From: an uncultured delta proteobacterium
GTDB taxonomy: Bacteria > Desulfobacterota > Syntrophorhabdia > Syntrophorhabdales > WCHB1-27
Length of the DNA stretch: 64,000 bases
Direction of reading: 5' to 3'
Assembly (NCBI GenBank): GCA_963810935.1
Contig: CAWEPK010000016.1
Location: 96,001 to 160,000 of the forward strand
The notes under the pieces are model-generated. The model ran no database searches, was not told where the DNA came from, and worked only from the letters and a program-made list of their open reading frames with translations. The position numbers were made by a program, and so were the translations under genes. Positions 21,835 to 53,131 of the stretch are shown in pieces (the first letter of the stretch is position 1; each line of letters starts with the position of its first letter).

Positions 21835-23595
21835 ATGGCGTACGATGCGACAAAAATGGCAGACTGGCAGATTTCCGAGGCTGCTGAAGGGAAAATGAAG
21901 TCGATCTGGCAGTTGGGCGACGAAATGGGGCTCAAGAAAGAGGAGATCCAGCCCTACGGCCGGATAGGTAAGGTCGATTTCATGAAAGTCATCGAACGGC
22001 TGAAGGACAAGCCGGACGGCAAGTACATAGAAGTCACGGCCATTACTCCGACCCCCCTGGGCGAAGGGAAGACGACCGTTTCTATGGGCCTTGTCGAGGG
22101 TATGGGCAAGAGGGGCTGGAACGTAGGCGGCGCCATCCGTCAGCCTTCGGGCGGCCCGACGATGAACGTCAAGGGAAGCGCGGCCGGCGGCGGCAACGCG
22201 CAGGCAATCCCTCTGACTGAGTTTTCTCTCGGCCTCACAGGCGACATAAACAACATTATGAACGCCCACAACCTCGCCATGGTCGCGATGACGTCGCGCA
22301 TGCAGCACGAGAGGAATTACTCGGACGCCGAGCTCGCGAAGAGGAAGCTGAAGAGACTCGATATCGACCCGAAGAACATCCAGATGGGCTGGATCATGGA
22401 CTTCTGCGCCCAGTCGCTCAGGAACATCGTGATCGGCCTGGGCGGCAAGATGGACGGCTACCTCATGCAGTCCCGCTTCGACATAGCGGTCAGCTCCGAG
22501 GTTATGGCGATACTCGCAATCATCCGGGACCTTGCGGACCTCCGCGAAAGACTCGGCAAGATAACCGTCGCATATGACAGGACCGGCAAGCCGGTAACCT
22601 GTAACGACCTCGAAGTGGCCGGCGCCATGACCGCCTTTATGAGGGAGAGCGTCAACCCGACGATCCTCCAGTCCGTCGAGGGGCAGCCTGTCCTCGTCCA
22701 TGCCGGCCCGTTCGCGAACATCGCAGTCGGCCAGTCCTCCATCATAGCCGACCGTGTGGCACTCAAGCTCTTCGATTATAACGTTACGGAGAGTGGGTTC
22801 GCCGCAGACATCGGGTTCGAGAAGTTCTGGAACGTCAAGTCGAGGATCAGCGGCCTGAAACCCAACGTATCGGTCCTCACGACCACGATCCGCGCCCTCA
22901 AGATGCACGGCGGCGGACCGAGGGTTGCCCCGGGCCTCCCGCTGCCCGAAGAGTACAAGAAGGAAAACCTGGGACTCCTCGAAAAAGGCGCGGCCAACAT
23001 GGTCCACCACATAAAGACCATCAAGCAGTCGGGGATGAAGCCCGTCGTCTGCATCAACTGGTTCCACACGGACACGAAGGACGAGATCGCCATGCTGCGG
23101 AAGATCGCTGAAGCCGAAGGCGCCCGCGTGGCCTTATCGACCCACTGGCTGAACGGTGGCGACGGCGCACTCGAGCTTGCCGACGCAGTCCATGACGCGT
23201 GCGAAGAAAAGTCGGATTTCAAGTTCCTTTATCCCCTCGAAATGCCTCTCCGCCAGAGGGTCGAAATGGTGGCGAAGAACGTTTACGGCGCGGACGGCGT
23301 CTCCTGGTCGCCCGAGGCGGAAGCCAAAGCCAAGGCCTTCGAGGCAGACCCCGAAAAGAGAGACTACTACACGATGATGGTCAAGACGCACCTGAGTCTC
23401 TCCCACGACCCGAACCTGAAGGGCGTGCCGAAGGGCTGGGTGCTGCCGGTGAGGGACGTCCTTATCTTCTCCGGCGCCAAGTTCCTCTGCCCCGTGACCG
23501 GCGCGATCAGCCTCATGCCCGGCACGAGCTCCGACCCCGCGTTCAGAAGGATCGACGTGGACGTCAAGACGGGCAAAGTAACGGGTATGTTCTAA
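21835..23595 (+). CDS. fhs: Formate-tetrahydrofolate ligase
   Basis: [44 protein letters not shown]-terminal LMPG. Confidence 0.97.
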
Positions 23596-23701
23596 CGGCA
23601 TAGATGCAAAGGTGCATCCGGTGGAAGGAAAGCCGCCGGGTGCACCTTTCAACACATAAGAAGCATTGGCGCGAAATACGAGATGGAGGGGGTTTTGAGG
23701 G

Positions 23702-24469
23702 ATGGCAAGAGTGGCGGCGCCTGAGATTTTCGCCTTTGCCGGCAAAGGGGGGGTGGGCAAGACTACCGTCAGCGGCATGCTTATTCGCTACCTGGTGGAA
23801 AGGCGCAAGGACGGCCCCGTGCTCGCCGTGGACGCCGACCCCAACGCTAACCTGAACGAGGTCCTTGGCATACGCTCATACGCTACGATAGGTGAAGCGC
23901 GGGAGATGATGAAAGAGGCTGTGCCTTCCGGCATGACCAAAGAAACCTGGATGGAGCTGAAGGTGCATGAGTCCCTTGTCGAAAGCCGGGGGTTCGACCT
24001 CCTGGTGATGGGAAGGCCCGAAGGACAGGGTTGTTACTGCGCGGCCAACACGCTGGTCAAAAAGCACATCGATATCCTCAAAGACAACTATTTTTACATA
24101 GTGGTGGACAATGAGGCGGGCATGGAGCACATGAGCAGGCTCGTTACCCAGGACGTGGACCACCTGTTCGTAATCTCCGATGCGACTTCAAGGGGCCTTT
24201 TGACCGCCCGTAGGATACTGGAGCTTGCGGGGGAGCTCGATCTGCGGATCGGCTGTAAGCACACAATAGTCAATCGAGTGGGGCCGGGGCACGAGGGGCT
24301 GGCCCGGTTGGCCGCAGAAAGGGGCGTTGAGGTGAACGGCATCATCCGCGACGACCCGTCGCTTTTTGCCATGGATGCGGAGGGCGGCAACGTGTTCTCG
24401 ATAGAGAACGGCGTGGCCCTTCACGACGCTTACGATGTTTTTGAAAAAATCCTGAAGGGAAAGGAGTAA
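23702..24469 (+). CDS. cooC: CODH/ACS nickel-insertion ATPase (CooC/AcsF family)
   Basis: AGKGGVGKTT, DADPN, GCYC, DNEAGMEH. Confidence 0.9.
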   Translation: MARVAAPEIFAFAGKGGVGKTTVSGMLIRYLVERRKDGPVLAVDADPNANLNEVLGIRSYATIGEAREMMKEAVPSGMTKETWMELKVHESLVESRGFDLLVMGRPEGQGCYCAANTLVKKHIDILKDNYFYIVVDNEAGMEHMSRLVTQDVDHLFVISDATSRGLLTARRILELAGELDLRIGCKHTIVNRVGPGHEGLARLAAERGVEVNGIIRDDPSLFAMDAEGGNVFSIENGVALHDAYDVFEKILKGKE

Positions 24470-24471
24470 AC

Positions 24472-25359
24472 ATGGCTGCAACTATTATAAGCGGAACCGC
24501 CGTAGCGGCTCAGATAAGGGAAGAGATCAAGAAAGACGTGGATGAGCTCAAGGCGAAGCATAACCTGACTCCAGGGCTTGTCACCATCCTTGTCGGGGAA
24601 AACCCTGCCTCGGTGAGCTATGTCACTGCGAAGCAGAAGACATCGCACGACCTCGGCTTCTATTCGATACAGGACAACCAGCCCGGGGACATCACCGAAG
24701 AGGCGCTCCTGGCCCTTATCGACAGGTACAACAAGGACCCTAAAATTCATGGTATACTTGTTCAGCTTCCCCTGCCGAAGCACGTGAATGAGACGAAAGT
24801 GCTGTACGCCATCGACCCGGATAAGGACGTCGATGCGTTTCATCCCGTCAATGTCGGCAAGCTCGTTATAGGGGAGGCCAATTATTATCCGTGCACTCCG
24901 TACGGTATCCAGCAGCTCCTGGTGAGGAGCGGAGTCAAGACGGACGGCGCGGAGGTTGTTGTCGTGGGCAGGAGCAACATCGTCGGCAAGCCAATCGCCA
25001 ACATGCTTCTCCAGAAGGCAAAAGGGGCCAATGCGACGGTCACCATTTGCCACACGGCGACGAAGGACATGGCCTTCCATACGAAACGGGCGGACATACT
25101 GATAGTCGCCGCGGGCAGGCCGAAGGCGATCACGGGCGACATGGTGAAGGAAGGAGTAGTGGTTATAGACGTAGGCGTCAACCGCATCGGCATGACGCCG
25201 GAAGGCAAGGCGAAGCTGGCCGGAGACGTGGATTTCGAGTCGGTTAAAGAGAAAGCTTCCTTCATCACACCGGTCCCCGGAGGCGTGGGCCCCATGACCA
25301 TCACCATGCTCATGCTTAACACAGTCAAGGCTGCGAAGCTTTTTGGGGGAATAAAGTAA
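24472..25359 (+). CDS. folD: Methylene-THF dehydrogenase/methenyl-THF cyclohydrolase
   Basis: YxxxK, HGILVQLPLP, KDVD, PCTP, GRSNIVGKP, TPVPGGVGPMT. Confidence 0.97.
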   Translation: MAATIISGTAVAAQIREEIKKDVDELKAKHNLTPGLVTILVGENPASVSYVTAKQKTSHDLGFYSIQDNQPGDITEEALLALIDRYNKDPKIHGILVQLPLPKHVNETKVLYAIDPDKDVDAFHPVNVGKLVIGEANYYPCTPYGIQQLLVRSGVKTDGAEVVVVGRSNIVGKPIANMLLQKAKGANATVTICHTATKDMAFHTKRADILIVAAGRPKAITGDMVKEGVVVIDVGVNRIGMTPEGKAKLAGDVDFESVKEKASFITPVPGGVGPMTITMLMLNTVKAAKLFGGIK

Positions 25360-25369
25360 GGAGGAGACA

Positions 25370-25585
25370 ATGGCGGACTACAACTACGAAGAGAAGGAAA
25401 ACTTCGAGGGCAAGAAGGTGAAAGTGCTGGGCGCCACCTACGAGCCGGGCTCAGGCCAGGGAAAAGACGACTGGACGGAAAAGCTCGGCAGCGTAAATGA
25501 AAGGCTCGGTTATTTGAAAACCGCCCTCCGCTACTGGTACAGCGACGACTGGTTCGGCAGCGAGAAGAGGAAGCAGGAGGCATAA
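25370..25585 (+). CDS. Small hypothetical protein inside the Wood-Ljungdahl operon
   Basis: Strong SD AGGAGGAG, 10 bp after the folD stop; aromatic C-terminal RYWYSDDWFGSE. Confidence 0.8.
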   Translation: MADYNYEEKENFEGKKVKVLGATYEPGSGQGKDDWTEKLGSVNERLGYLKTALRYWYSDDWFGSEKRKQEA

Positions 25586-25793: not shown

Positions 25794-26735
25794 ATGGCTT
25801 TAACGATACCTACGATCAGCTACACAGGTAAGATCAAGGAAGTGACATTAGGCAGCGGCACCTCTTCCGTTACTCTCGGAGGAGAGGCATGTTACCCCTT
25901 CTATACCTTCGAGGGGGCCATGCCCCGTGCGCCCCAGATAGCCTTTGAGGTATGGGACGCCAAGCCGGAAGACTGGCCGGAGTGGGCCGTAGAGCCGTAT
26001 AAAGACGTCATCTCCGACCCGGTTGCCTGGGCGAAGAAGGCAGTTGATGTCTACAAGGCTGAGATGGTCGCCCTGCTCCTCAAGAGCGCAGACCCGAACG
26101 GCGCGAACCGGGACGCCGAGGCCGTTGTTGCAACGGTCAAGGCGGTTGCGGACGCAGTTTCCGTTCCGCTCATCGTCTGGGGCTGCGCGAACGACGAGAA
26201 GGACGCAATCATGCTCCGGCGCGTAGCGGAGGTCTGCGAAGGCAAGAACCTCGCCATCGGCCCCGTGACCGATAAAAACTACAAACAGATAGGGGCCATG
26301 GCCATTGGCTACAACCACGTGGTTATCGCATCCACGCCTATCGACGTCAACCTGGCGAAGCAGCTTAACATCCTCCTCGGCAACCTTGGTGTGCAGGATA
26401 ACCGGCTCCTGATCGACCCGACGACAGGCGGCCTGGGCTACGGCCTCGAATATTCCTATTCGGTGATGGAGCGCGACCGTATGGCCGCCCTCACCCAGGA
26501 AGACGTGAAGCTCCAGACGCCCATCATCTGCAACCTCGGGAACGAGGTATGGAAGACGAAAGAGGCCAAAACCAGGACAGAAGATAATCCCAAGCTCGGC
26601 GACGCGAAGAAAAGGGCCGTCCTTATGGAGTCGGTCGCTGCGATGACGCTCGCCATGGCGGGCGCGGACCTGCTTATCATGAGACACCCTGAATCCATCG
26701 CCTATGCGAGACAGATGTTCAAGGAATTAACGTAA
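25794..26735 (+). CDS. acsD: Corrinoid iron-sulfur protein small subunit (AcsD/CdhD)
   Basis: TIM-barrel CFeSP-small motifs DVNLAKQLN, IDPTTGGLGYGLEYSYS, GADLLIMRHP. Confidence 0.95.
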   Translation: MALTIPTISYTGKIKEVTLGSGTSSVTLGGEACYPFYTFEGAMPRAPQIAFEVWDAKPEDWPEWAVEPYKDVISDPVAWAKKAVDVYKAEMVALLLKSADPNGANRDAEAVVATVKAVADAVSVPLIVWGCANDEKDAIMLRRVAEVCEGKNLAIGPVTDKNYKQIGAMAIGYNHVVIASTPIDVNLAKQLNILLGNLGVQDNRLLIDPTTGGLGYGLEYSYSVMERDRMAALTQEDVKLQTPIICNLGNEVWKTKEAKTRTEDNPKLGDAKKRAVLMESVAAMTLAMAGADLLIMRHPESIAYARQMFKELT

Positions 26736-26745
26736 GGGGGAAACC

Positions 26746-28692
26746 ATGTCGGAAGAAAAGATACGGAGTATAGATAAAGCGACAATCGAGCTTCTGGACA
26801 AGGCGGAAAGAGAGAAGATCTCAACCGCCTTCTTCCGGGCTGAAGATTTGAAGCCCTGTCCCATAGGCGTGGAAGAGAGCTGCTGCAAGATATGCGCGAT
26901 GGGACCGTGCAGGATGCCCAAGCCGAAGAAAGACGACGGAAAGAAGAGAATGGGCGTCTGCGGCGCCACCATCGAGACCGTAGTCGCCAGAAACTTCGCG
27001 CGTAAAGTGGCCGGCGGCTGTGCAGCCCACTCCGACCACGCCCGCGAGGTCGTAGAGACCTTCATCAAGGCGGCCAAGGGCGAGGCCCAGGGCTTCCAGA
27101 TCAAGGATGAAATGAAGCTCCAGGAAGTCGCCCTCGATTTCGGCGTGCCGACCGAGGGTAGGGAGCCGAACGATATCGCCCTGGAAATAGGCGAGAAGGC
27201 CCTTTCGGAGTTCGGCAGGCAGCACGGTGAGGCCGTATACGTCAAGAAGGCCCCCCTCAAGAGACAGGATATCTGGCGGAAGCAAGGCGTAGTCCCCAGG
27301 GGCATCGACCGGGAAGTGGTCGAAGTGATGCACAGGACGCATATGGGCGTGGACCAGGACTACAGGCACATTATGCAGCAGGCCACGCGCTGCGCGCTGG
27401 CGGACGGCTGGTCGGGCTCCATGATCTCGACTGACCTCCAGGACATCATGTTCGGCACGCCTGTGCCGGTAGTGGGCACCTTCAACCTGGGTGTCCTGAA
27501 GGAAGACCAGGTCAACGTCATCATCCACGGACATGAGCCGCTCCTTCCGGAGCTTATGGTTGTCGCGTCCCGCGACCCGGAGATCAAGAAAGAAGTGGAA
27601 AAGGTCGGCGCGAAGGGCATCAACCTTGCCGGCATGTGCTGCTCGGCCAACGAGGTGCTGATGCGTCACGGCGTGCCTGTCGCAGGCAACTTCCTTCAGC
27701 AGGAGCTGGCGCTCGTAACGGGCGCAGTCGAGCTGATGTCGGTCGATGTCCAGTGCGAGATGCAGGGTCTGGCCGACGTCGCCCAGTGCTTCCACACAAA
27801 GCTGATTACGACGTCCGACAGGGCGAAGATGGAAGGCGCCGAGCACTATGAGTTCACCCCGGAGACGGGTCTCGACACTGCAAAGAAGCTGCTGAAGCTC
27901 GCCATAGCCAATTACCCGAACCGGCGTCACAACGTTACGATACCGCAGTATTCGGCGGACGGTGTCGTCGGCTTCTCCCACGAGACGATCAACTACCTGC
28001 TGGGCGGCCTCTTCCGCGCGAGCTACAAGCCGCTCAACGACAACATAATCAACGGCCGCATCAGGGGAGTGGCGGGCGTCGTCGGGTGCAACAACCCGAG
28101 GACCCCTCACGACCAGGGCCATATAGAGATGGTTAAGGAGCTCCTGAAGAACGACGTTGTCGTCCTCACGACGGGCTGCTCCGCAATGGCCTGCGGAAAG
28201 GCCGGCCTGCTCACGCACGAAGCCTCAAAGAAATACTGCGGTCCGGGTCTGGCTGAAGTCTGCGAGACGGTAGGCATACCGCCGGTCCTCCATATGGGCT
28301 CTTGCGTAGACAACTCACGCATCCTGATCGCCGCTACGGCGCTTGTCAAGGAAGGGGGCCTCGGCGATGACATTTCCGACCTGCCTGCGGCGGGCGCGGC
28401 GCCAGAGTGGATGAGCGAGAAGGCCATATCGATCGGCCAGTACTTCGTCGCCTCCGGCGTCTACACGGTCTTTGGCGCCACTTTCCCCAGCTTCGGCAGC
28501 GAGATATTCACGAAGCACCTCTTCGAGGAGCACGAGGACCTGTATAAAGGCATGTGGGCCTTCGAGGTGGACCCGGTAAAGGCCGCCCGTATGATGATCG
28601 CCCATATCGATAAGAAGAGGAAGGCGCTCGGCCTCGACAAGGGCAAAGAGAGGGTGCTGTTCGATATGGCCATGCGCAGGGCCATCGAGTAA
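26746..28692 (+). CDS. cooS: Anaerobic Ni,Fe CO dehydrogenase catalytic subunit (CooS/AcsA)
   Basis: CCKICAMGPC; C-cluster ligands HGHEP, MCCSANE, DVQC, GCNN, TGC, GSCVDN; SEKA. Confidence 0.97.
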   Translation: MSEEKIRSIDKATIELLDKAEREKISTAFFRAEDLKPCPIGVEESCCKICAMGPCRMPKPKKDDGKKRMGVCGATIETVVARNFARKVAGGCAAHSDHAREVVETFIKAAKGEAQGFQIKDEMKLQEVALDFGVPTEGREPNDIALEIGEKALSEFGRQHGEAVYVKKAPLKRQDIWRKQGVVPRGIDREVVEVMHRTHMGVDQDYRHIMQQATRCALADGWSGSMISTDLQDIMFGTPVPVVGTFNLGVLKEDQVNVIIHGHEPLLPELMVVASRDPEIKKEVEKVGAKGINLAGMCCSANEVLMRHGVPVAGNFLQQELALVTGAVELMSVDVQCEMQGLADVAQCFHTKLITTSDRAKMEGAEHYEFTPETGLDTAKKLLKLAIANYPNRRHNVTIPQYSADGVVGFSHETINYLLGGLFRASYKPLNDNIINGRIRGVAGVVGCNNPRTPHDQGHIEMVKELLKNDVVVLTTGCSAMACGKAGLLTHEASKKYCGPGLAEVCETVGIPPVLHMGSCVDNSRILIAATALVKEGGLGDDISDLPAAGAAPEWMSEKAISIGQYFVASGVYTVFGATFPSFGSEIFTKHLFEEHEDLYKGMWAFEVDPVKAARMMIAHIDKKRKALGLDKGKERVLFDMAMRRAIE

Positions 28693-30944: not shown

Positions 30945-30955
30945 AAAGGGCAAGG

Positions 30956-31110
30956 CTGCCAGGCAGCGCGTACGCGCTTTAATAGGGAAGATGGTGTAAT
31001 TCCATCACGGACCCGCCGCTGTAAGGGGGGACGATGGCGCAAGATCCACTGGGTAATCCCGGGAAGGTGCGCCGGAGGATGATCCCCGAGTCAGAAGACC
31101 CGCCTGGCAG
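30956..31110 (+). ncRNA. Cobalamin (B12) riboswitch between acsB and acsC
   Basis: AATAGGGAA, GGTGTAATTCC, CCCGCCGCTGTAA, CCACTG...GGGAAGG, B12 box GAGTCAGAAGACCCGCC. Perfect P1 CTGCCAGGC/GCCTGGCAG. Confidence 0.92.
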
Positions 31111-31168
31111 TTCTTACAGACACCCTCCTCGAGGCCTGGGAGAGGAAGCTTAAAAAAAGGAGACTGCT

Positions 31169-32503: not shown

Positions 32504-32529
32504 AAATACCTAACCGAACGGGAGGAAAC

Positions 32530-43367: not shown

Positions 43368-43567
43368 CGGCTTTCCCGATCACCGTAAATCGAGAATCCC
43401 CCCTGATTAACCGCTTACTGTACCGTTTTTAGGATGAGCAGTTGTGTTTTCTCACGTGCCCATTAATCTACAACATATCTTCTAATTATGATAGATAATT
43501 CTGCAATATTTAATAGTATCCCTTGTTTGCTTCCCTCCAGATCAAAGACGCCGGTAACTTCTATACT

Positions 43568-43584
43568 TTGGCACGTTTTATGCT
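43568..43584 (+). promoter_or_regulatory. Sigma54 (-24/-12) promoter of the acyl-CoA ligase/GNAT-hdr-mvh operon
   Basis: TTGGCACGTTTTATGCT, near consensus TGGCACG-N4-TTGC; divergent from the activator. Confidence 0.85.
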
Positions 43585-43596: not shown

Positions 43597-43881
43597 ATGC
43601 TGTGGATGGAGATGATCCGTCTAAGAACCACGCCGTCTCAACTGGATGGAGTTGCCCGCCTGATCTCCGATAACATCAGGCAGGCAACCGGAGAATCGGG
43701 ACTCCTCCGGGTCCGGATGTACCACAGCGCTGAGTATCAGACCGATCTGGCGCTCAGCTTTACCTGGGAGACCAATGTGATGCAGCAAAAGGGGAGCCGG
43801 GCGGGCTTGAGCATCAGCGAGGCGCTCAAGAACTTCGGGCTTGTAGAGCACTCGATATGGATGGAAAGAGAGCCGGCTTGA
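43597..43881 (+). CDS. Small hypothetical protein, first gene of the sigma54 operon
   Basis: 94-aa ORF filling the gap between the promoter and the ligase/GNAT gene; globular-looking sequence ending LKNFGLVEHSIWME. Confidence 0.65.
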   Translation: MLWMEMIRLRTTPSQLDGVARLISDNIRQATGESGLLRVRMYHSAEYQTDLALSFTWETNVMQQKGSRAGLSISEALKNFGLVEHSIWMEREPA

Positions 43882-43916
43882 GCAAAGGCCCTATCGCCGG
43901 TACATAGGGGAGCTGC

Positions 43917-46643
43917 ATGGGGGACATAAGAAAAATGTTCGAGCCGAAAACTATCGCGGTTTTCGGCGATATGGACGCGGATGGTTCTGTAGAAAAGATT
44001 CTGCTTGCCAACCTGCTTCTTTCCAACAGTCATAAGACCTTTTGGGTACACGCCGAAGAAAACGGCGGAGAACCCGCAAAGAAGGCGAAAAAAGGAACAA
44101 AACCTAAAACATTGGTGGTGAGCCCTACGGGCGAATCCATCTTCGACCTGAGTTCCTATCCCGAGGTGGCGGCCATACCGGAAAAGATAGACCTGGCCGT
44201 AATTGCAACCCCCGCGCCAGGCGTCCCTCAGATTGTTGAGGAATGCGGAAAAGCCGGGGTGGAGGGCATAGCTATCCTCTCGGGCGGCTTCAGGGAGGCG
44301 GGAGAGGAAGGGGCAAGGCTCGAGGAGGCCGTCAGCCGTATAGCCAGGGGCTACGGTATGCCGATACTGGGGCCGAACAGGGGCAGCATCATAAGGCCGA
44401 GCATAGGCCTCAATACGTCGATCTTCGACGTGCAGCCCGACGAGGGGAACATTGCGTTCATCTCGCAGAGCGCCTCTGTCGCCCGCGTAGTCCTTGACTG
44501 GGCGGCAAACGCCCACGTCGGCTTCAGCATGGTGATTTCGCTCGGCTCGATGGCCGACATAGACTTTGGCGACCTCATCGATTTTCTCGGCGAAGACCCT
44601 TTGACGCGCAGCATCATGATCTACATGGAGTCGATCGGCAACGCACGCAAGTTCATGAGCGCCGCGCGCAGTTTCGCTAGGAGCAAGCCGATCGTAGTAG
44701 TGAGATCGGGCCAGTTCAAAGAGAGCGCCCGTGCTTCTCATTCACACACCGGGTCCCTTGCGGGCTACGATAAGGCGTACGAGGTGGCCTTCAGGCGGGC
44801 CGGGGTCGTCCGGGTCCGGGAGATTATGGACCTCTTTAACGCGGCTGAGGTGCTCCATTCCAAAAACCTGCCCGGGGGGCCCTCCCTGGCAATAGTCACG
44901 AACGCCGGCGGCCTGGGTGTTATGGCTACAGACATACTCATCGGCTTCGGGGGCAAGTTGGCTCCGCTGTCGGATAAAAGCATAGACGACCTGGACCTCT
45001 TCCTGCCGCCGCACTGGAGCAGGAACAACCCCGTTGACCTTTTCGGGGACGCGGACATCGAAAGGTACACGAAGGCGGTCAACGTCTGTCTCGCGGACAG
45101 GTGCGTGGACGGCATTCTGATTATCTATGCCTCCAGCACGGCCGCCGACCCTAAGGACCTGGCCGTGGCTGTGGCGGAGATCGCCAAGCAGGCGACGAAG
45201 CCCGTGATCGTCACCTGGATGGGCGGTCCCAGCGTCGGGGAAGGAAAGAAGGCATTCAAGGATATACGGATACCTGTCTACGAAACGCCGGAAGAGGCCA
45301 TAAAGACGTACCTTTACATGTACCGGTATAAGCGGAACCTGGAGCTCCTGTACGAAACCCCGGCGGATTTGAGGGTAGACCAGGGACCGCCGAAGAACAA
45401 CTTGAAGGCGTTCATACGGCGCAGCCTCAAAGAAGGGAAAAGCGTCTTTACCGAGGCGGAGTCGAAGAACTTCCTGAACAGCTACGGGATCCCGAGCACC
45501 ACCCCGTTTATGGCGGACAGCGCCGGGATCGCCGCTAACTGGGCGGAGAGGGTGGGCTACCCCGTAGTCCTGAAAGTCGTCTCCTCCGATATCCTTCGCA
45601 GGAGCGAGGTGGGCGGCACCGTGGCGGTCTATGCGCCGAGCCTGCTGAGGTCCGAATACGAAGCGCTTCTGAAGAGGGTCGCGGAGAACCGCCCGGACGC
45701 CAAAATCGCGGGTGTGACCGTCGAAAAGATGGTCGAGAACATCGAAACGCAGATCGCTTTAGGGGCTGACAAGGATCACGATTTCGGGTGTATCATATAC
45801 TTCGGCACGGGTGGTATAGGTTCTGACGTGTACCGGGATATCTCGTTCGGGATACCGCCCCTCAACCAGACCCTCGCCAGGCTCCTCATGGAGGAGACTG
45901 AGGTGTACAGGGTATTGAAGGGACTTGGGTCCAAAAAGCCCGCTGACTTGCGCGAGATCGAGCAGATTATCGTCCGCTTCTCCGACCTCGTGATCGATTT
46001 CCCGGAGATATCACAAGTAAACATTAACCCGATAGTCATCTCGAACGGCAAGCCGCTTGTGGTTAACGCCCAGATCATACTGGAGACCGGGGAGGTCGGC
46101 CAGTATCCCCACGTAGTCATCACGCCTTACCCGACCCGTTACGTCAGCCAGTGGCACTTCGAGGACGGCAGGCAGGTTCTGCTGCGGCCCGTAAAGCCGG
46201 AGGACGAGCCGCTTGAGCACGACCTGCTCAGCTCCCTGTCGGAAGCTACGATGAGGGCGCGGTTCTTCTCGATAATCAAGGACATCTCCCACGAGATGCT
46301 GATCCGCTACTGCAACATCGATTACGACCGGGAAATGGCCATAGTAGCGGAGGTGCGCGAGAACGAGAAAAGAAAGATGATAGGCATAGCGAGGCTGATC
46401 GTAGACAGACAGTTCAAGTCCGGGGAGTTCGCCGTCCTCGTCCACGATGACTACCAGGGCAAAGGACTCGGCCTTAAGCTCGTCGACGTGCTTATAGGCA
46501 TTGCTGAAGATAAAGGGCTGGGCGGTATCTACGGTGAGATATTGACGGAAAACGAAAAGATGATCGCGGTATGCAGAAAGCTCGGATTTACCATCGAGAG
46601 GTCAGACGAGGAAGTGACCAGAGTCAACCTCGAGCTGCGATAA
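43917..46643 (+). CDS. Acyl-CoA synthetase (NDP-forming)-like/GNAT acetyltransferase fusion (Pat/PatZ-type)
   Basis: SGGFRE, ISQS, SHTGSLAG, TNAGGLG, NPVD, ATP-grasp GYPVVLKV and INP; C-terminal GNAT IDYDREMA, QGKGLG. Confidence 0.92.
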   Translation: MGDIRKMFEPKTIAVFGDMDADGSVEKILLANLLLSNSHKTFWVHAEENGGEPAKKAKKGTKPKTLVVSPTGESIFDLSSYPEVAAIPEKIDLAVIATPAPGVPQIVEECGKAGVEGIAILSGGFREAGEEGARLEEAVSRIARGYGMPILGPNRGSIIRPSIGLNTSIFDVQPDEGNIAFISQSASVARVVLDWAANAHVGFSMVISLGSMADIDFGDLIDFLGEDPLTRSIMIYMESIGNARKFMSAARSFARSKPIVVVRSGQFKESARASHSHTGSLAGYDKAYEVAFRRAGVVRVREIMDLFNAAEVLHSKNLPGGPSLAIVTNAGGLGVMATDILIGFGGKLAPLSDKSIDDLDLFLPPHWSRNNPVDLFGDADIERYTKAVNVCLADRCVDGILIIYASSTAADPKDLAVAVAEIAKQATKPVIVTWMGGPSVGEGKKAFKDIRIPVYETPEEAIKTYLYMYRYKRNLELLYETPADLRVDQGPPKNNLKAFIRRSLKEGKSVFTEAESKNFLNSYGIPSTTPFMADSAGIAANWAERVGYPVVLKVVSSDILRRSEVGGTVAVYAPSLLRSEYEALLKRVAENRPDAKIAGVTVEKMVENIETQIALGADKDHDFGCIIYFGTGGIGSDVYRDISFGIPPLNQTLARLLMEETEVYRVLKGLGSKKPADLREIEQIIVRFSDLVIDFPEISQVNINPIVISNGKPLVVNAQIILETGEVGQYPHVVITPYPTRYVSQWHFEDGRQVLLRPVKPEDEPLEHDLLSSLSEATMRARFFSIIKDISHEMLIRYCNIDYDREMAIVAEVRENEKRKMIGIARLIVDRQFKSGEFAVLVHDDYQGKGLGLKLVDVLIGIAEDKGLGGIYGEILTENEKMIAVCRKLGFTIERSDEEVTRVNLELR

Positions 46644-46700: not shown

Positions 46701-47351
46701 ATGAAGAGTCCTAGACCTGCACCGTATAGCCCTTCCGACTCCGGCGCCCGCCCCTCGCTTCTTTATGAAGTGAGGAAGGTGCTGAAGTACCAGTCGGAGC
46801 TGAACCCGGAGTTCGGCATTGACGTGGCCCGTAAGGCCCATGGGGAGAGCCTGCTGGGATGTATCCAGTGCGGTACGTGCTCGGGTACATGCCCGGTGAG
46901 CCATTACATGGACTATTCGCCGAGGAAGATCATCGCCATGGTCCGCTCAGGGTTCGAGGAAGAAGTCCTGACGAGCACTACCATCTGGCTTTGCGCCTCC
47001 TGCTACCAGTGCACTGTAGACTGCCCGAAGCAGATCAGGATCACGGACATCATGTATGCCCTTAAGCAGAAGGCGATTGCGCGCCACCTCTATCCGGCCA
47101 AGTTCCCGGTGCCCATCATGGCGGAGGAGTTCTACAAGAATGTTGCGAAGAACGGCAGGAACTCCGAAGGCACCCTCATGATAAACATGGCGCGGAGGAC
47201 GAGTATTTTCAATCTCTTCAAGTATACACGCCTCGGGATGAAGCTCTTCACGACGGGCAGGATGGCGCTTCGGGAAGAGGGCATCAAGAACAAGGAACAG
47301 CTCCGCGCGCTTCTGCGGGGCGTAGAAAAGGCTGAGGAGGAAGCGAGATGA
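46701..47351 (+). CDS. hdrC: Heterodisulfide reductase subunit C
   Basis: CIQCGTCSGTCP and CASCYQCTVDCP. Confidence 0.93.
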   Translation: MKSPRPAPYSPSDSGARPSLLYEVRKVLKYQSELNPEFGIDVARKAHGESLLGCIQCGTCSGTCPVSHYMDYSPRKIIAMVRSGFEEEVLTSTTIWLCASCYQCTVDCPKQIRITDIMYALKQKAIARHLYPAKFPVPIMAEEFYKNVAKNGRNSEGTLMINMARRTSIFNLFKYTRLGMKLFTTGRMALREEGIKNKEQLRALLRGVEKAEEEAR

Positions 47352-48229
47352 AATATCTCTATTACCCAGGCTGTTCCCTGAAGAGTACCGGAAAGCCTTA
47401 CGAGGAATCGTTGAAGGCGGTCTTCTCCGCGCTCGGCGTGCCGCTCGAAGAGCTCGACGACTGGAACTGTTGCGGCGCCACGGCTTACATGGCAGTGGAC
47501 GAGGTCAAGTCCTTCGCCCTCTCCGCGCGCAACCTGGCTCTCGCCGAGAAGCAGGGCGAGCCCGCAGATAACGGCCATGTCCAGCTCGTCGCCCCGTGTT
47601 CCGCCTGCTATGCCCTTTCCCTGAAGACGCAGCACTACCTTGATGAGAACCTGGACATCAGGAAGAAGGTCGACCGGGGCCTGCAGGAGGCCGGTCTCAC
47701 GTATGAAGGGAAGGTCGATGTGCGCCACCCCCTCGACGTTTTGATGAACGACATCGGGACGGACAAAATAAAGGAGGCGGTCAAATCGCCTGTCGGAAAC
47801 AATGTGGCATGTTATTACGGGTGCCAGATCGTCAGGCCCTATGCCACTTTCGACAACCAGGCAAACCCGACCAGCCTCGACGATATGATGAAGGCCATAG
47901 GGGCCACGCCCGTGCCCTGGGCGATGAAGACGCGCTGCTGCGGCGGGACGCTCGTGGGCACGATAAGGGACGTCGGCTTCCGCCTCAACTACCTTATTCT
48001 CAAAGAAGCGGAGAGGAGAGGGGCCGATACCGTCGCCACCACCTGCCCCTTGTGCCAGTTCGGCCTGGAGTGCTTCCAGCCCGACATGAACGCAAACTAC
48101 AGAGGCGGCGTGGACATGCCGGTGGTCTACTTTACCCAGTTGCTGGGCGTCGCCCTCGGCATTCCCGAGAACAAGCTGGGCATGCAACGGCTCTTCGTGC
48201 CGTACAAGAAGGCTCAAATAGGAGGTTAG
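47348..48229 (+). CDS. hdrB: Heterodisulfide reductase subunit B
   Basis: YYPGC..WNCCG..CSAC and YYGC..CCGG..CPLC. Confidence 0.94.
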   Translation: MKYLYYPGCSLKSTGKPYEESLKAVFSALGVPLEELDDWNCCGATAYMAVDEVKSFALSARNLALAEKQGEPADNGHVQLVAPCSACYALSLKTQHYLDENLDIRKKVDRGLQEAGLTYEGKVDVRHPLDVLMNDIGTDKIKEAVKSPVGNNVACYYGCQIVRPYATFDNQANPTSLDDMMKAIGATPVPWAMKTRCCGGTLVGTIRDVGFRLNYLILKEAERRGADTVATTCPLCQFGLECFQPDMNANYRGGVDMPVVYFTQLLGVALGIPENKLGMQRLFVPYKKAQIGG

Positions 48230-48232
48230 CCA

Positions 48233-50221
48233 ATGGCAGCGAATGGATTACCAAGAATTGGGGTCTATGTGTGCGAATGCGGCACGAACATCGCCGCCAC
48301 CGTAGACGGAGAGGCCCTGGCCGAATTTGCCTCCACCCTTCCGGGTGTGGCCGTTGCCAGGAAATACAAGTATATCTGCTCGGAGCCGGGGCAGCAGATG
48401 ATCCAGCAGGACATCAAGGATCAAAATATAGAAAGGGTTGTCGTCGCTTCCTGCTCGCCCAGGATGCACGAGTCGACGTTCCAGACGGCCCTTGAGAAAG
48501 CCGGGCTTAACCCGTTCTATTTCGCCATGGTCAACATCAGGGAGCACGTTTCCTGGGTCGTCAAGGACAAAGATATGGCGACGGCGAAGGCGAAGAGGCT
48601 CATCAGGGCCGCAGTATCGAGGGTGCTGCTCCAGCAGGAGCTTTTCTCCCGGAAGGACACCGTCACGCCCAAGGCCCTTGTGGTGGGCGGGGGCATCGCA
48701 GGCATCCAGGCGGCCCTTAACATCGCCGATGCCGGCTACCGGGTTTACCTGGTCGAGCGGAAACCTTCTATAGGGGGCCACATGGCCCAGCTCGACAAGA
48801 CGTTCCCGACACTAGACTGTAGTACCTGAATTCTCGGCCCCAAAATGATGGATGCCGGTCGGCATCCGAACATCACCCTTCTAACGAACAGTGAAGTTAC
48901 GAATGTATCGGGCTATGTGGGCAACTACAAAGTGACCGTGAAGAAGAAGCCGCGCTATATCAAAGAAGAGCTTTGCGTGGGCTGCCTCCAGTGCATCGAC
49001 GGATGCACCTATAAAGAGGCGAAGTTCGCCGACGAGTTTCAGATGGGCCTCGGCAAGCGCAAGCCTATATACCTGCCTTTCCCTCAGGCAACCCCGCAGG
49101 TCGTGCTCATCGACCCGGGCCGCTGCATCCAGTTAAAGACGGGCAAATGCAAGAAAACCTGCGCCACGGCCTGCGACAGGAATGCCATCGACTTCGAGCA
49201 AAAGGAAGAGACATTAGAGGTGGACGTCGGCGCCATCGTCATCGCTACGGGCTTCGAGATGTTCGATGCAGCGAGACTCCCGCAGTACGGCTACGGCATT
49301 TATCCTAACGTTTACACCGGCCTCGAAGTCGAGAGGCTCACGAGCGCCTCGGGGCCTACCGGCGGCGAGGTGGTCTTGCGGGACGGCACGCATCCGAAGA
49401 GCGTCGCCATCATACACTGCGTCGGCTCCCGCGACGAGAAGACGAACCGCTGGTGCTCCAGGGTCTGCTGCATGTATTCCCTGAAGCTTGCCCACATGGT
49501 GAAAGACCACACGGGCGCCGAGGTCTACAACTTCTATATCGACATGCGTACGCCTGGAAAGGGCTACGAAGAGTTTTACGACAAGCTGCTCGCCGAGGGC
49601 GTCCATTTCATACGCGGCCGCGTTGCCGAGGTGACCGACTGGGCAATCAGTCAGGAAGAAATCGGGAAGCTCGTTATCAGGGCGGAGGATACACTGATCG
49701 GCGTTGTAAGAAGGATACCTGTCGATATGGTCATCCTTTCCACAGGGCTTCAGCCGCAGGAAGACGCCGCGCAAGTGGCGTCCATGTTCACCATAAGCCG
49801 CTCCGCGGACGGGTTCTTCGCGGAGGCGCACCCGAAGCTGCGGCCGGTCGAAACGAACACGGAGGGGGTCTACCTTGCGGGTTGCGCCCAGGGGCCAAGG
49901 GACGTGCCTGACACTGTCGCCCATGCCGGGGCCGCGGCTTCTATGGCGGTCGCACTTCTCAACAGGGGGGAGGTGACTATATCGCCGACTGTGGCGTCGG
50001 TCGACGAGAAGCTGTGCAGCGCCTGCAAGACGTGTCTCTCTGTCTGTCCCTTCCAGGCGATTACCTTCGACGGTGAAAAGAAGCTGGCTAAGGTTAACAG
50101 CGCCCTGTGCAAGGGCTGCGGTACGTGCGTCGCTACCTGTCCTGCGGCGGCAATTTCAGACGCCCATTTCTCGGTCGAGCAGATCGTCGCACAGATAGAA
50201 GGGCTTCTCAAAACTGCTTAA
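48233..50221 (+). CDS. hdrA: Heterodisulfide reductase subunit A, selenoprotein (TGA 48827-48829 = Sec)
   Basis: Track ORFs 48233-48829 and 48845-50221 are in frame, joined by DKTFPTLDCST-U-ILGPKMM. TGA aligns with Cys in DCSMC-IMAPK of the paralog. Confidence 0.92.
48850..48867 (+). promoter_or_regulatory. Putative bacterial SECIS of hdrA
   Basis: GGATGCC-GGTC-GGCATCC perfect 7-bp stem with a G-first loop 27 nt after the UGA. Confidence 0.7.
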
Positions 50222-50233
50222 AGGAGCACGATG

Positions 50234-50665
50234 ATGATATTCGAACCAAGAATAATCGCCTTCCTCTGCAACTGGTGTACCTATACAGCAGCAGATGCCG
50301 CAGGCGTCGCCCGTCTGGAGCAGCCCGGAAACATAGACGCTATAAGAGTTATGTGTACGGGCAGGATAGAGCCCATGTTCGTAATGAAGGCATTTGCCGA
50401 AGGGGCGGACGGGGTTATTGTTTCCGGCTGCCACCCCCCGGGAGACTGCCATTACACGAACGGCAACTTCAAGACCTTCCGCCGCATGCCTCTCTTAGAG
50501 ACGCTCCTTTCCGAGTTCGGCATTGAGAAGGGGAGGTTCCACTGGGGCTGGATATCCGGCGCCGAGGCGCCCAAGTGGGCGCAGCTAGCCCGGACTTTCA
50601 CCGAACAGGTACGCGAGCTGGGGCCGCTTGACTGGAAAGCCCAGCTCGCGAGCAAGGAGGATTAG
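50234..50665 (+). CDS. mvhD: MvhD [2Fe-2S] subunit (Cys form)
   Basis: FLCNWCTYTAAD, MCTGR, SGCHPPGDCHY. Start is 50231 or 50234. Confidence 0.93.
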   Translation: MIFEPRIIAFLCNWCTYTAADAAGVARLEQPGNIDAIRVMCTGRIEPMFVMKAFAEGADGVIVSGCHPPGDCHYTNGNFKTFRRMPLLETLLSEFGIEKGRFHWGWISGAEAPKWAQLARTFTEQVRELGPLDWKAQLASKED

Positions 50666-50666
50666 C

Positions 50667-51626
50667 ATGGCTGATAAACTAAAGCTCGCCCTGTACTGGG
50701 CTGCATCTTGCGGCGGCTGCGATATAGCCATTGTCGAGCTGCGCGAGAAGATACTCGTTGTCGACCAGGTAGCCGACATCGTCTTCTGGCCGGTCGCCGT
50801 AGATGCGAAGTATAAGGACGTGGAGGCCATGCCCGACGGCCATATCGATGTCTGCCTTTTCAACGGGGCAATCCGCACGAGCGAGAACGAGCACCTGGCC
50901 CACCTCCTGCGGAAGAAATCGAAGGTCCTCGTTGCGTTCGGCTCCTGCGCGAACGAAGGCTGCATGCCCGGCCTGGCCAACCTTTACGACAGGCAGTCGA
51001 TTTTCGACTATGCCTATCTGGAGTCTCCCTCTGTGGACAACCCCGACAAGGTCGTCCCGCAGACGCATAACAATATGCCGGAAGGGGAGATAGAGATACC
51101 GAAGTTTTACCAGACGGTGAAGACATTATCACAGGTCGTCGACGTGGACTACCACATACCCGGCTGTCCCCCGCAGGCCCCCCAGATATGGGCCGTGATA
51201 GAGGCGATAGTGCAGGGTAAGCTGCCTGAGAAAGGGAGCGTGGTAGGCGCAAACGATAAGACAGTCTGCGACGAGTGCAAGCATGAGCGCAAGGAGAAGG
51301 CGATAAAGAAGTTTTACCGCACCTACGAGATCATCCCCGACTCCACGCAATGCCTTTTCGATCAGGGCCTGATCTGCGCGGGACCGGCCACGAGGGGCGG
51401 CTGCGGCGCGCTTTGCACCAAGGTCGACGTGCCCTGCCGTGGCTGCTACGGCGCCCCGCCCCACGTCGTGGACCAGGGCGCTGCCCTGATGTCTGCCGTG
51501 GCGTCCGTCGTGGATGCGGATACGGAAGAGGAGGCCGCGCGCATCGTGGGCGAGATTGCCGACCCTATCGGGACCTTCTACCGCTTCGGTCTCCCGGCGT
51601 CGCTCTTACACCGGCGGAAGATGTGA
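50667..51626 (+). CDS. mvhG: Group 3c [NiFe] hydrogenase small subunit MvhG
   Basis: ASCGGC, GSCA, PGCPP, VCDEC, C.GPATRGGCG..C....PCRGC; SD AAGGAGG. Confidence 0.93.
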   Translation: MADKLKLALYWAASCGGCDIAIVELREKILVVDQVADIVFWPVAVDAKYKDVEAMPDGHIDVCLFNGAIRTSENEHLAHLLRKKSKVLVAFGSCANEGCMPGLANLYDRQSIFDYAYLESPSVDNPDKVVPQTHNNMPEGEIEIPKFYQTVKTLSQVVDVDYHIPGCPPQAPQIWAVIEAIVQGKLPEKGSVVGANDKTVCDECKHERKEKAIKKFYRTYEIIPDSTQCLFDQGLICAGPATRGGCGALCTKVDVPCRGCYGAPPHVVDQGAALMSAVASVVDADTEEEAARIVGEIADPIGTFYRFGLPASLLHRRKM

Positions 51627-51666
51627 TGCAGACGCAGGGTCCGAAGACTGCTATAAGGAGAGCGCT

Positions 51667-53131
51667 ATGAAGAAGATAAGCATTGATCCCGTGACCCGGC
51701 TCGAAGGACACGGAAGGATAGACATCTTCCTCGACGACCAGGGCGAGGTGGCCAATGCCTATATGGTCATCCCCGAGCTTAGGGGTTTCGAGAAATTCTC
51801 CCAGGGGAGGCGGGTCGAAGAACTGACGGACATTACGCCCCGCATCTGCGGCGTCTGTCCCGAGGCGCACCACCTCGCCGCAACCAAGGCCACCGACGAG
51901 GTGTTCCACGTCGAGCCGCCGCCGACGGCAAAGAAGCTGAGAGAGCTTTTTTACTCCGCCTTTTACGTAGCGGACCACACGGTCCACTTCTATATCCTGG
52001 GCGGGCCCGACTTCGTGATGGGCCCCGACGCCCCCGTGGCAGAGAGGAACATCCTCGGCGTGATCCACAAGGTCGGCGTTGAGATAGGCTCGAAGGTGAT
52101 CGAAGCCAGGGGCAAGGCGATGGACATCATCGGCATGCTTGGCGGCAGGAAGGTCCATCCCACCTTCGGCATCGCCGGAGGCGTCATGAAGGGCCTCACC
52201 GAAGAGGAGAGGAAGCAGGTGGAGCAGACCGCCGGGGACTCGATAGAGTTCGCGCTGTTCACCCTGAAGCTCTTCAAGGACATCGTCCTTGCAAACAAGG
52301 ACTACCTCGACCTGATCATGTCGCCTATTTTCACCATGCCCACGTACTATATGGGTATGGTGGACGACAACAACAAGGTGAACTTCTACGACGGGAAGAT
52401 AAGGGTAGTAGACCCGGACGGCAAGGAGTTCGTAAAGTACGCGCCGAAGGATTACCTGTACAACGTGGCAGAGCGCGTGGAGCCGTGGACGTACCTGAAG
52501 TTCCCGTACCTTAAGAATGTGGGCTGGAAGGGCCTTACTCTGGGCAAAGACTCCGGGGTGTACCAGGCAACGCCGCTCTCGCGCCTCAATGCTGTCGGAC
52601 GGTATGGCTACGTCCTTGGCGCAGCAGGCATATGAGGAGATGTACAAGACCTTCGGCCATAAGCCCGTGCACAATCTCCTTGCTACACATTGGGCGCGCC
52701 TGATCGAGTTGCTCTATGCAGCCGAGCGCCTGCAGGAGCTGGCCAAAGACAAGACCATCACAGACACGAAGATCCGCAACATACCCACGGAGAAGCCGAC
52801 GGAAGGCGTCGGCATCGTCGAGGCGCCCAGAGGGACGCTTACGCACCACTATGTAACCGATGAGAAGGGCATCGTAACGAAGGCGAACCTTATCGTGGGC
52901 ACGACCAACAACTACGCGCCCATCTCGATTGCCATAAAGCAGGCGGCGCAGGGGCTTATCAAGAAGGGCGTGGAGGTGACGGAAGGGATACTCAACCGTG
53001 TCGAGATGGCCTTCCGGCTTTACGATCCATGCTTCGGCTGTGCCACGCATACACTGCCGGGCAGGATGCCCCTGGTCATTAATATAATGGACCCGAGCGG
53101 CGAAGTGGTAAGACAGATTAAAAGGGATTAG
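51667..53131 (+). CDS. mvhA: Group 3c [NiFe] hydrogenase large subunit MvhA, interrupted by +1 frameshift near 52594
   Basis: TRLEGHG, L1 RICGVC, EAPRGTL.H, L2 YDPCFGCATH plus cleavable tail. Removing one base gives continuous LNASDGMAT. Confidence 0.88.

Follow-up and report, generated by a model that had tools for sequence, protein, structure and literature searches.

Two predicted sigma-54-dependent operons in a Syntrophorhabdales genome, one with an HdrL-type MetVF reductase and a cobalamin riboswitch before acsC, the other with a hydrogenase-Hdr complex

The nearest described counterpart of the methylene-tetrahydrofolate (methylene-THF, or methylene-H4F) reductase considered here is the MetFV-HdrABC-MvhD complex of Moorella thermoacetica, for which the available part of the source gives NADH as the donor, methylene-H4F as the acceptor and a second acceptor listed as '?' (PMC5861303). 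The HdrL protein was defined in Desulfobacterium autotrophicum HRM2 as an HdrA/glutamate-synthase fusion with mvhD following (available part of PMC2702500), and according to the accessible text of a third paper all previously known corrinoid riboswitches repress, one natural activating case being reported there (PMC10653944). Here we describe a bacterial locus that combines Wood-Ljungdahl genes, an HdrL-type MetVF reductase, a cobalamin riboswitch and a hydrogenase-heterodisulfide reductase (Hdr) complex. It occupies positions 21835-53131 of a window of 64,000 nt, by which we mean the whole stretch of DNA analysed (96001-160000 of contig C16, CAWEPK010000016.1). The source genome, G000, is assembled into 21 contigs totalling 4.06 Mb, with a completeness of 93.5% and a contamination of 7.1%. 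To judge from the relatives of its HdrL, the organism, an uncultured anaerobe from soil, belongs to the Syntrophorhabdales.

The reading that we prefer, and hold with somewhat better than even confidence, is that the region comprises two sigma-54-dependent energy-metabolism operons which are separable units: operon A (fhs to metF), with an HdrL-type reductase, and operon B (orf94 to mvhA), with a hydrogenase-Hdr complex. Genes were called from an open reading frame (ORF) listing and by Pfam and NCBIfam profile scans, and the features are collected in Table 1. Every gene named in a sequence-only reading of this DNA was recovered by the profile scans, on the + strand except for the activator (-), and the ends given there, the fhs ATG at 21835 and the mvhA stop at 53131, are exact; to that list we add the riboswitch, a gene for a 116-aa winged-helix protein, a 71-aa gene, two selenocysteine (Sec) codons, orf94, a 908-aa gene (acd) and a frame break in mvhA. 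The two statements which that reading took as established, namely that MetVF-Hdr-MvhD complexes are proposed flavin-bifurcating methylene-THF reductases and that MvhAGD-HdrABC bifurcates electrons from H2 to ferredoxin and a disulfide in methanogens, are both correct. The locus was compared with five relatives (G001-G005, making six genomes with that of the window), and an HdrL query of the genome collection gave 391 tblastn-confirmed stretches, from which 79 loci (L-numbers) were fetched. The closest HdrL loci belong to metagenome-assembled genomes (MAGs) labelled Syntrophorhabdales, Syntrophorhabdaceae or 'delta proteobacterium', at 97-63% identity.

Operon A would supply the Wood-Ljungdahl pathway except for formate dehydrogenase, which is encoded elsewhere by two Sec-containing FdhA genes, and at its end adjoining metF and metV, mvhD, a gene for an HdrA-type flavoprotein in the HdrL variant, hdrB and hdrC stand in one run, as expected of a MetFV-HdrABC-MvhD system. 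The HdrL N-terminus is HdrA-like, with FPTNDCSMCIM at residues 53-63, and residues ~150-630 form an NAD(P)H module, in which 155-630 match the NfnB-type chains 4YLF_B and 5JCA_L, 9N5U, GltD chains and the GltD-like part of 8OH5_C; the complete HdrA part has chain A of 5ODC as its best solved relative (642 bits), and against NF040770 the protein scores 959 bits, under the cut-off of 1100. The ORF listed for mvhD1 (39750-40100) is without its N-terminus, but when read from 39675 with TGA as Sec (U) it begins MSFEPNIIAFCCEYU and covers positions 1-123 of the 123 of PF02662 (FlpD), with 172.9 bits. Across 43 homologous loci this codon is TGA in 32 and TGC or TGT in 11, a distribution that reads as the classic Sec/Cys pattern. 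All cluster-binding cysteines are retained in HdrB1 with HdrC1 and in HdrB2 with HdrC2 of operon B, and a search by sequence found no solved relative of MetV. Judged on these features, the cassette encodes a variant form of the MetFV-HdrABC-MvhD reductase of Moorella, with HdrL in place of HdrA, a predicted Sec form of MvhD and a winged-helix protein co-encoded. The NAD(P)H site would be provided in cis by HdrL, and MetVF-HdrCB-HdrL-MvhD would most likely carry out flavin-based bifurcation or confurcation linking NAD(P)H, ferredoxin and methylene-/methyl-THF, in either direction; with an NfnB/GltD-like module of its own, the reductase would need no thiol derived from H2.

The order hdrC-hdrB-winged-helix gene-hdrL-mvhD-metV-metF is whole in at least 31 of the 79 loci, many of the others ending at contig edges, and the acs genes lie directly upstream of the cassette in only 12 of the 79, which make up the closest clade. 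For the sequence-only reading, an arrangement that is widespread and already characterised in its taxon would count as a refutation, and half of this applies. Widespread it is; what has been characterised is the principle, in Moorella (available part of PMC5861303), and we found no paper characterising hdrCB-hdrL-mvhD-metVF in Syntrophorhabdales, nor do hdr, metV, metF or Syntrophorhabd occur in PMC12827605.

Both operons are preceded by near-identical sequences of the sigma-54 type. These have the GG-N10-GC spacing in a TGGCAC/TTGC-like context, rpoN is present in the genome, and the gene for an enhancer-binding protein adjoins, the N-terminal 190 aa of which match no Pfam family at E<=0.05. 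The promoter core, GGCAYRYTTTATGC, is found twice in the window against 0.00 expected (100 shuffles) and three times in the 4.06-Mb genome; it is a refined form, derived post hoc from the best match of a generic scan and then tested, the generic sigma-54 consensus scan itself being at chance (49 matches, 54 expected), as were scans for sigma-70 promoters and terminators. The window, G002, G003, G004 and G005 all conserve the core upstream of fhs, with flanks that vary (alignment A6, in which the G001 row is uninformative for the promoter). The orf94 promoter, aligned for the window and G001-G004 (A4), is invariant at nine of 14 positions, the other five lying within the degenerate consensus or differing by transitions (C/T, G/A). 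The core also precedes a stand-alone hdrC2 in G003, G004 and G005 and is missing from the 57-nt gap between acd and hdrC2 in the window and G002, in which hdrC2 is likely to be transcribed by read-through from the orf94 promoter. Because near-identical promoters stand before fhs, orf94 and the stand-alone hdrC2, co-regulation is likely, and both operons would likely be under common sigma-54 control. A 10-mer, ATTTAATAGT, noticed post hoc, occurs only twice in the whole genome, upstream of the fhs and the orf94 promoters, and is possibly a site for the activator or for IHF. To our knowledge, sigma-54 control of a Wood-Ljungdahl operon is uncommon.

Within operon A, expression from acsC onward would additionally be gated by a cobalamin riboswitch, the most unusual part of the locus. 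The element runs from the acsB stop codon to a point 47 nt short of acsC; its match to RF00174 is full-length (model positions 1-189) and scores 117.8 bits, where the gathering score is 31.5. It was found at the same place in all six relatives scanned (108-117 bits) and in 12 loci by blastn, in 13 genomes in all. AcsC is encoded in 197 of 301 Desulfobacterota genomes sampled. For 40 of the 197 (eight loci from the same order but other families, 32 from other families) the stretch of 510 nt preceding acsC was taken, and none of the 40 contains RF00174. The riboswitch before acsC is confined to the clade of the window, and we found no published report of a cobalamin riboswitch at this position.

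The expression platform of this riboswitch consists of a 5-bp P13-like hairpin, CUCCU-CGAGGCCU-GGGAG, followed by the acsC ribosome-binding site AAGGAGA (alignment A2). Across the relatives the hairpin has the form CUCC(U/C)-loop-GGGAG, with a loop CG(A/C)GG that can pair with CCCG of L5 around one bulged base, and the 5' side of its stem complements the Shine-Dalgarno sequence of acsC. If the ligand stabilises this hairpin, as in the models in the available part of PMC10653944, the Shine-Dalgarno sequence would be freed, and the platform in this respect suggests, short of proof, an activating switch. Accessibility of the ribosome-binding site, computed by RNAfold with and without an enforced P13, showed no consistent shift over 12 sequences (for one of which, L012, the start codon was mis-picked), and a complementarity between the 3' strand of P1 and the spacer of the ribosome-binding site, read by eye, is not kept in all relatives. 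The platform differs in L007, L008 and L010 (~5640-5775), where a strong 11-bp hairpin (CUCUAGCGAGC...GCUCGCUAGAG) comes after the P13-like one; GGGGAGG follows, and next an ATG whose context is unlike that of the other nine sequences. A cobalamin riboswitch ahead of a gene for a corrinoid protein represents an unusual regulatory logic, and if it activates on binding ligand, just one other natural corrinoid riboswitch of the activating kind would be known, going by the accessible part of the same report (PMC10653944).

The winged-helix protein encoded between hdrB1 and hdrL has homologues in 42 of the 79 HdrL loci, always between hdrB and hdrL. In L065 and L070 it is present where mvhDGA, not metVF, follows HdrL, so that its association is with HdrL and not with MetVF. 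The protein has no cysteines; the stretch GNxYGExxTxRQF is invariant or nearly so, N35, E39 and Q45 being invariant (alignment A1). Its AlphaFold2 model has a pLDDT confidence of 93.6, with an N-terminal helical part that is unique and a C-terminal half that alone resembles ArsR/SmtB-type domains; Foldseek against the PDB and a PDB profile search returned generic ArsR/SmtB-type domains only. In a protein atlas it falls into unnamed clusters, some of them archaeal (Thorarchaeota, Bathyarchaeota). Complex prediction for HdrL residues 1-620 with this protein yielded a score of 0.00 in a run without controls, from which no verdict follows. We regard it as a candidate for a subunit of the reductase or for an operon-internal regulator.

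Operon B encodes the large and small [NiFe]-hydrogenase subunits and MvhD together with HdrABC, the composition of MvhADG-HdrABC, and hdrC2B2A2-mvhDGA is a conserved six-gene unit in all five relatives. Its product would be a methanogen-type hydrogenase-Hdr complex that bifurcates electrons from H2 to ferredoxin and a disulfide, the bacterial substrate being likely DsrC, as dsrAB and dsrC are present in the genome. Read through its TGA as Sec, hdrA2 gives a product whose residues 8-659 match NF040770 with 857 bits. All of the five sequences compared keep the TGA, the equivalent motif of HdrL having Cys, and short-read contigs cover the codon without any difference. A 7-bp hairpin lies 23 nt downstream of the TGA, with a weak fold z of -1.57. 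ARAGORN reports three tRNA-Sec genes (C4:30323-30418, C6:4921-5016 and C11:126660-126755), one of them right at the edge of a 30-kb contig and another on a contig of 8 kb; the three may be assembly or strain duplicates. For both MvhD1 and HdrA2, then, a TGA aligned with Cys in homologues goes together with tRNA-Sec in the genome. Sec at the DCSxU site of HdrA also occurs in some methanogens.

Several observations weigh against the reading of two separable sigma-54-dependent units with the functions proposed. The mvhA gene is split into two frames by one extra T at ~52593, and the only HycI protease gene of the genome lies on C2, beside a paralogous mvhDGA. HdrA, HdrB, HdrC, VhuA and VhuG each fall short of their NCBIfam equivalog cut-offs (VhuA 264 and 110 against 800, VhuG 246 against 450, HdrA 622 against 1400), so that these proteins would be relatives of the methanogen enzymes, not orthologues. 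The third copy of the promoter core precedes an 80-aa ORF for a secreted protein rich in Lys, Ala and Pro; as that protein is unrelated, the core would mark a class of sigma-54 promoter and not one regulon. Whole-genome family searches of this 93.5%-complete genome found no Rnf, no AprA above cut-off, no ATP sulfurylase (Sat) and no PTA_PTB, and the physiology (sulfite reducer, syntroph or acetogen) is therefore not fixed. With two dsrAB copies of identical score, DsrC on another contig and 7.1% contamination, the link of DsrC to this organism is likewise uncertain.

Taken at face value, the frame break in mvhA would mean that the hydrogenase of operon B has been lost in this strain, the Mvh of the window being a pseudogene, H2 metabolism running through mvhDGA-hycI on C2, and HdrCBA2 using another electron donor or being idle. 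The single extra T, the lack of an exactly matching short-read contig over the site, the absence of any other frame break among the ~27 window genes read, and the intact paralogue with the sole HycI protease on C2 are all in keeping with such a loss. All five relatives, however, are without the extra T and have an intact mvhA frame, and the contigs of all three short-read runs with cover at the site (run X1 has none) are also one base shorter there, although 16-20 further differences from the window mean that they may represent sister strains. The rest of mvhA is undamaged and keeps the Ni-binding C-terminus DPCFGCATH with its cleavable tail, and G001, which is 97% identical, carries many frame breaks that we read as being of the consensus-error kind. 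On balance we think that the extra T is probably an assembly error, and regard loss of the hydrogenase as possible but doubtful.

Another explanation, which we consider unlikely, is that the neighbourhood is incidental, operon B with its GNAT genes being an acetyl-CoA/acetylation or sulfite-respiration module that landed beside operon A in one sublineage. Gene order in the relatives lends it some weight: in G003 and G004 the activator-orf94-acd unit stands beside metF but inverted, with hdrCBA-mvhDGA elsewhere under its own promoter (on another contig in G003, as in G005, and ~1 Mb away on the same contig in G004), and in G002 a further acd paralogue separates metF from the activator. With the cassette whole in at least 31 of the 79 loci and the operons adjoining in three of six genomes, the cassette is indeed ordinary in its order and the juxtaposition a feature of a sublineage. 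What speaks against mere chance is that the same promoter core also heads fhs, and that the 10-mer shared by the fhs and orf94 upstream regions has no other copy in the genome. These shared elements accord with two units that are separable and probably respond to sigma-54 together.

The sequence-only reading had gone further and proposed a thiol/disulfide carrier common to the two Hdr complexes, and DsrC could be the obvious candidate. dsrAB occurs twice in the genome (C8:662483-664640 and C10:306073-308231, both 566.6 bits), and DsrC, which ends in ...GACKIAGLPKPTGCV, has both of its C-terminal cysteines; dsrC was seen beside the C10 copy of dsrAB only, and the two copies represent either true duplication or strain redundancy. 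On this proposal the Hdr modules of both operons would exchange electrons through one carrier, most plausibly DsrC, with HdrCB1 reducing or oxidising DsrC at the methyl-/methylene-THF step and HdrCBA2-MvhDGA coupling DsrC and ferredoxin to H2 in either direction, which would open a route from the methyl branch to H2 or sulfite. The idea gains from the DsrC candidate and from co-regulation, the same type of sigma-54 promoter heading both operons; complete CCG motifs in HdrB1 and HdrB2, the adjoining operons in the window, G001 and G002, and the '?' entered for the second acceptor of the Moorella complex (available part of PMC5861303) also fit. It loses from the unlinked operons in half of the genomes compared and from the NAD(P)H site that HdrL brings with it, DsrC is encoded on a different contig in a MAG that is 7% contaminated, and with no fewer than three other Hdr/MvhD loci in the genome besides a second mvhDGA, the pairing of these two modules is arbitrary. 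A carrier shared by the two operons is conceivable but seems to us distinctly improbable. Most doubtful of all is the fullest version, in which the locus would be one sigma-54 regulon, DsrC or another protein thiol would shuttle between HdrCB of MetVF-HdrL and HdrCBA-Mvh, the methyl-THF/methylene-THF step, which is thermodynamically awkward when the Wood-Ljungdahl pathway runs in reverse, would be drained along with reduced ferredoxin to H2 or sulfite, and the corrinoid half would be made only with B12 through an activating riboswitch.

We return to two separable operons, for which the remainder of the genome supplies the setting. As the sequence-only reading had noted, the window holds no formate dehydrogenase, RACo, acetate kinase or phosphotransacetylase, hyp or hydrogenase protease gene, and whole-genome family searches place the matches outside it: FdhA with an in-frame TGA twice (C2:11812 and C8:482315, both above cut-off, with a weak match at C16:202129), RACo (AcsV) on C9, C12 and at C16:183469, HypD, the hyp gene searched for, on C8, and acetate kinase on C10 and C12, PTA_PTB being found nowhere. 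HypD and HycI would provide for hydrogenase maturation. The 30-kb contig C2 carries at 11812-19221 a Sec fdhA, an intact mvhD-mvhG-mvhA and HycI, a formate/H2 module paralogous to operon B. There are three Complex1_49kDa loci, a third hdrCBA-mvhD on C7, and HdrL-like genes on C1, C8 and C12. A second metV-metF pair (C3:27978-29900, L137 16470-18378), 48% and 60% identical to that of the window, is followed on the same strand by glutamate-synthase-like (GltB-like) genes (Glu_synthase FMN, GXGXG, GATase) and not by Hdr genes. From its gene content, and within the limits set by the quality of the MAG, the organism looks like a sulfite-type respirer or a syntroph with the Wood-Ljungdahl pathway; it has the look neither of a classical acetogen with Rnf nor of a full sulfate reducer.

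Table 1. Features of the region, with positions in the window and the matches or motifs on which each name rests
Feature	Position	Strand	Basis or remark
10-mer ATTTAATAGT, copy 1	21604-21613	+	~115 nt upstream of fhs promoter
Sigma-54-type -24/-12 promoter GGCATGTTTTATGC	21720-21733	+	~100 nt before fhs ATG
fhs, formate-tetrahydrofolate ligase	21835-23595	+	PF01268, 723 bits
CooC/AcsF-like P-loop nickel-insertion ATPase	23702-24469	+	PF01656, CbiA/MinD-type; NCBIfam MinD-like matches weak; named from context
folD, methylene-THF dehydrogenase/cyclohydrolase	24472-25359	+	PF02882, PF00763
Conserved 71-aa ORF	25370-25585	+	Has Shine-Dalgarno sequence; between folD and acsD
acsD, small subunit of corrinoid iron-sulfur protein	25794-26735	+	NF003377, 534.7 bits, above cut-off
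acsA/cooS, CO dehydrogenase catalytic subunit	26746-28692	+	TIGR01702, 631 bits, above cut-off
acsB, acetyl-CoA synthase	28740-30944	+	NF040764, 1070 bits, above cut-off
Cobalamin riboswitch and expression platform	30944-31168	+	RF00174; aptamer 30944-31121
acsC, large corrinoid-binding subunit of corrinoid iron-sulfur protein	31169-32503	+	NF003195, 636 bits, above cut-off
acsE, methyl-THF:corrinoid methyltransferase	32440-33405 (ORF)	+	PF00809; NF005719, 229.6 bits, match begins at residue 31
hdrC1	33415-33942	+	TIGR03290-like; two CX2CX2CX3C motifs
hdrB1	34041-34898	+	PF02754 (CCG) twice; both C..CC..CxxC motifs complete
116-aa winged-helix protein	34903-35253	+	PF01022, weak; last base is first base of hdrL
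hdrL, 1469 aa	35253-39662	+	HdrA-like N-terminus, NfnB/GltD-like module, HdrA-like middle, full HdrA
mvhD1, predicted selenoprotein	39675-40100	+	In-frame TGA 39717-39719, motif FCCEYU
metV	40114-40782	+	PF12225
metF, methylene-THF reductase catalytic subunit	40779-41699	+	PF02219; overlaps metV by 4 nt
Sigma-54-dependent activator	41790-43367	-	PF00158 (AAA+), 233.7 bits; PF02954 Fis-type helix-turn-helix
10-mer ATTTAATAGT, copy 2	43508-43517	+	~60 nt upstream of orf94 promoter; in conserved AT-rich block (A4)
Sigma-54-type promoter GGCACGTTTTATGC	43570-43583	+	14 nt before orf94 ATG
orf94, small protein	43597-43881	+	ABM-like, PF03992 weak, E 0.016, under cut-off
acd, 908-aa ADP-forming acyl-CoA synthetase-like protein with C-terminal GNAT	43917-46643	+	PF13549, PF13607, PF13380, PF13302
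hdrC2	46701-47351	+	Pfam/NCBIfam profile matches; cluster-binding cysteines
hdrB2	47348-48229	+	Ten cysteines of two CCG motifs
hdrA2, predicted selenoprotein	48233-50221	+	TGA 48827-48829 in DCSTU-ILGPKM; two ORFs in one frame
mvhD2, cysteine form	50231-50665	+	PF02662, 161.6 bits
mvhG, [NiFe]-hydrogenase small subunit	50667-51626	+	PF01058; NF045875 (VhuG), 245.6 bits, from residue 14 of ORF
mvhA, [NiFe]-hydrogenase large subunit	51667-53131	+	NF041785 (VhuA) matches both halves
Acetyl-CoA hydrolase/transferase fused to GNAT, 629 aa	53216-55105	-	PF13336, PF02550, PF00583

Of the remaining genes of operon A, the 71-aa ORF is 70-97% identical in all nine related loci that reach the site, and it matched no Pfam family. 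The true start of acsE is probably near 32530. Intergenic gaps from acsD to metF run from -64 to 98 nt, and the largest gap overall, of 208 nt, lies 3' of the 71-aa ORF. Outside the region, the window has at 5283-5789 a 168-aa ORF whose match to the Y1 transposase profile (IS200 type) is confined to positions 1-35, a full copy being found on C3 of the same genome (L137 5219-5737), and at 15889-18147, between secF and serS, a 752-aa ORF that belongs to no Pfam or NCBIfam family. At the head of operon B, orf94 is kept with the activator and the acd gene in the relatives. The 908-aa product of acd matches TIGR02717 with 445 bits, under the cut-off, and keeps the stretch SHTGSLAG, which we take to hold the catalytic histidine; its predicted domain architecture, Acd-like then GNAT, is Pat-like, and a full-length paralogue, 50% identical, is encoded at C7:111501-114167. 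The gene for the 629-aa CoA-transferase/GNAT protein is kept beside mvhA in G001 and G002, and operon B is flanked on both sides by acetyl-CoA-handling enzymes each with a C-terminal GNAT domain (908 and 629 aa).

How energy is coupled at the methylene-/methyl-THF step is an open question in Hdr-type acetogens, in complete-oxidizing sulfate reducers and in syntrophic acetate oxidizers. The clade described here offers a natural variant of the system, with an NAD(P)H module within HdrL, a predicted Sec form of MvhD and a candidate small subunit, conserved over dozens of genomes, and would be a good target for expression and structural work. By their sequences the enzymes belong to known kinds or are variants of them; what goes beyond the published work that we found is the acsC riboswitch, the predicted sigma-54 control of the whole set and the HdrL-associated winged-helix protein.

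Set beside the two corrinoid riboswitches in the accessible part of PMC10653944, those of P. megaterium metE (repressing) and A. halodurans cobT (activating), the element before acsC likewise has a full-length RF00174 aptamer, an L5 sequence, (A/G)CCCG, near the UCCCG consensus, and a short P13-like hairpin straight after the aptamer. It differs from both in being intra-operonic, in preceding a gene for a corrinoid-dependent protein, and in the complementarity of its P13 5' strand to the Shine-Dalgarno sequence of that gene; unlike the usual targets, acsC is not a gene for B12 synthesis, for B12 uptake or for a B12-independent isozyme. The reductase shares with that of M. thermoacetica, as far as the available part of PMC5861303 describes it, the components MetF, MetV, MvhD, an HdrA-type flavoprotein, HdrB and HdrC, the position of the genes at the end of the acs cluster and the CCG motifs of HdrB. 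In contrast to Moorella, HdrA is replaced here by a 1469-aa HdrL with an NfnB/GltD-like module and a second HdrA-like part, MvhD is predicted to contain Sec, a winged-helix gene intervenes between hdrB and hdrL, a sigma-54 promoter and an internal B12 riboswitch are present, and the system is known from its genes alone. D. autotrophicum HRM2 resembles the locus in its HdrL fusion followed by mvhD and in having Sec forms of Hdr and MvhD, but there HdrL1 adjoins dsrABC and HdrL is called unique to that organism (available part of PMC2702500), whereas in the present locus HdrL goes with metVF and hdrCB, and its distribution is wide (the 391 stretches).

Operon B, for its part, has in common with the methanogen MvhADG-HdrABC complexes (PDB 5ODC and 8RVU families) HdrABC, MvhD and both subunits, small and large, of a [NiFe]-hydrogenase of the group-3 type. 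It is unlike them in being bacterial, in its order hdrCBA-mvhDGA, in the Acd-like/GNAT gene that precedes it and in the broken frame of mvhA, and unlike methanogens the organism would be expected to have no CoM/CoB metabolism, the substrate here being probably DsrC. A comparable role for a bacterial HdrABC, acting on DsrC instead of CoM-S-S-CoB, has reportedly been proposed for the FlxABCD-HdrABC/DsrC system of Desulfovibrio, with NADH as donor through Flx. In contrast to that proposal, the donors in the locus described here would be the Mvh hydrogenase for operon B, or MetVF/HdrL for operon A.

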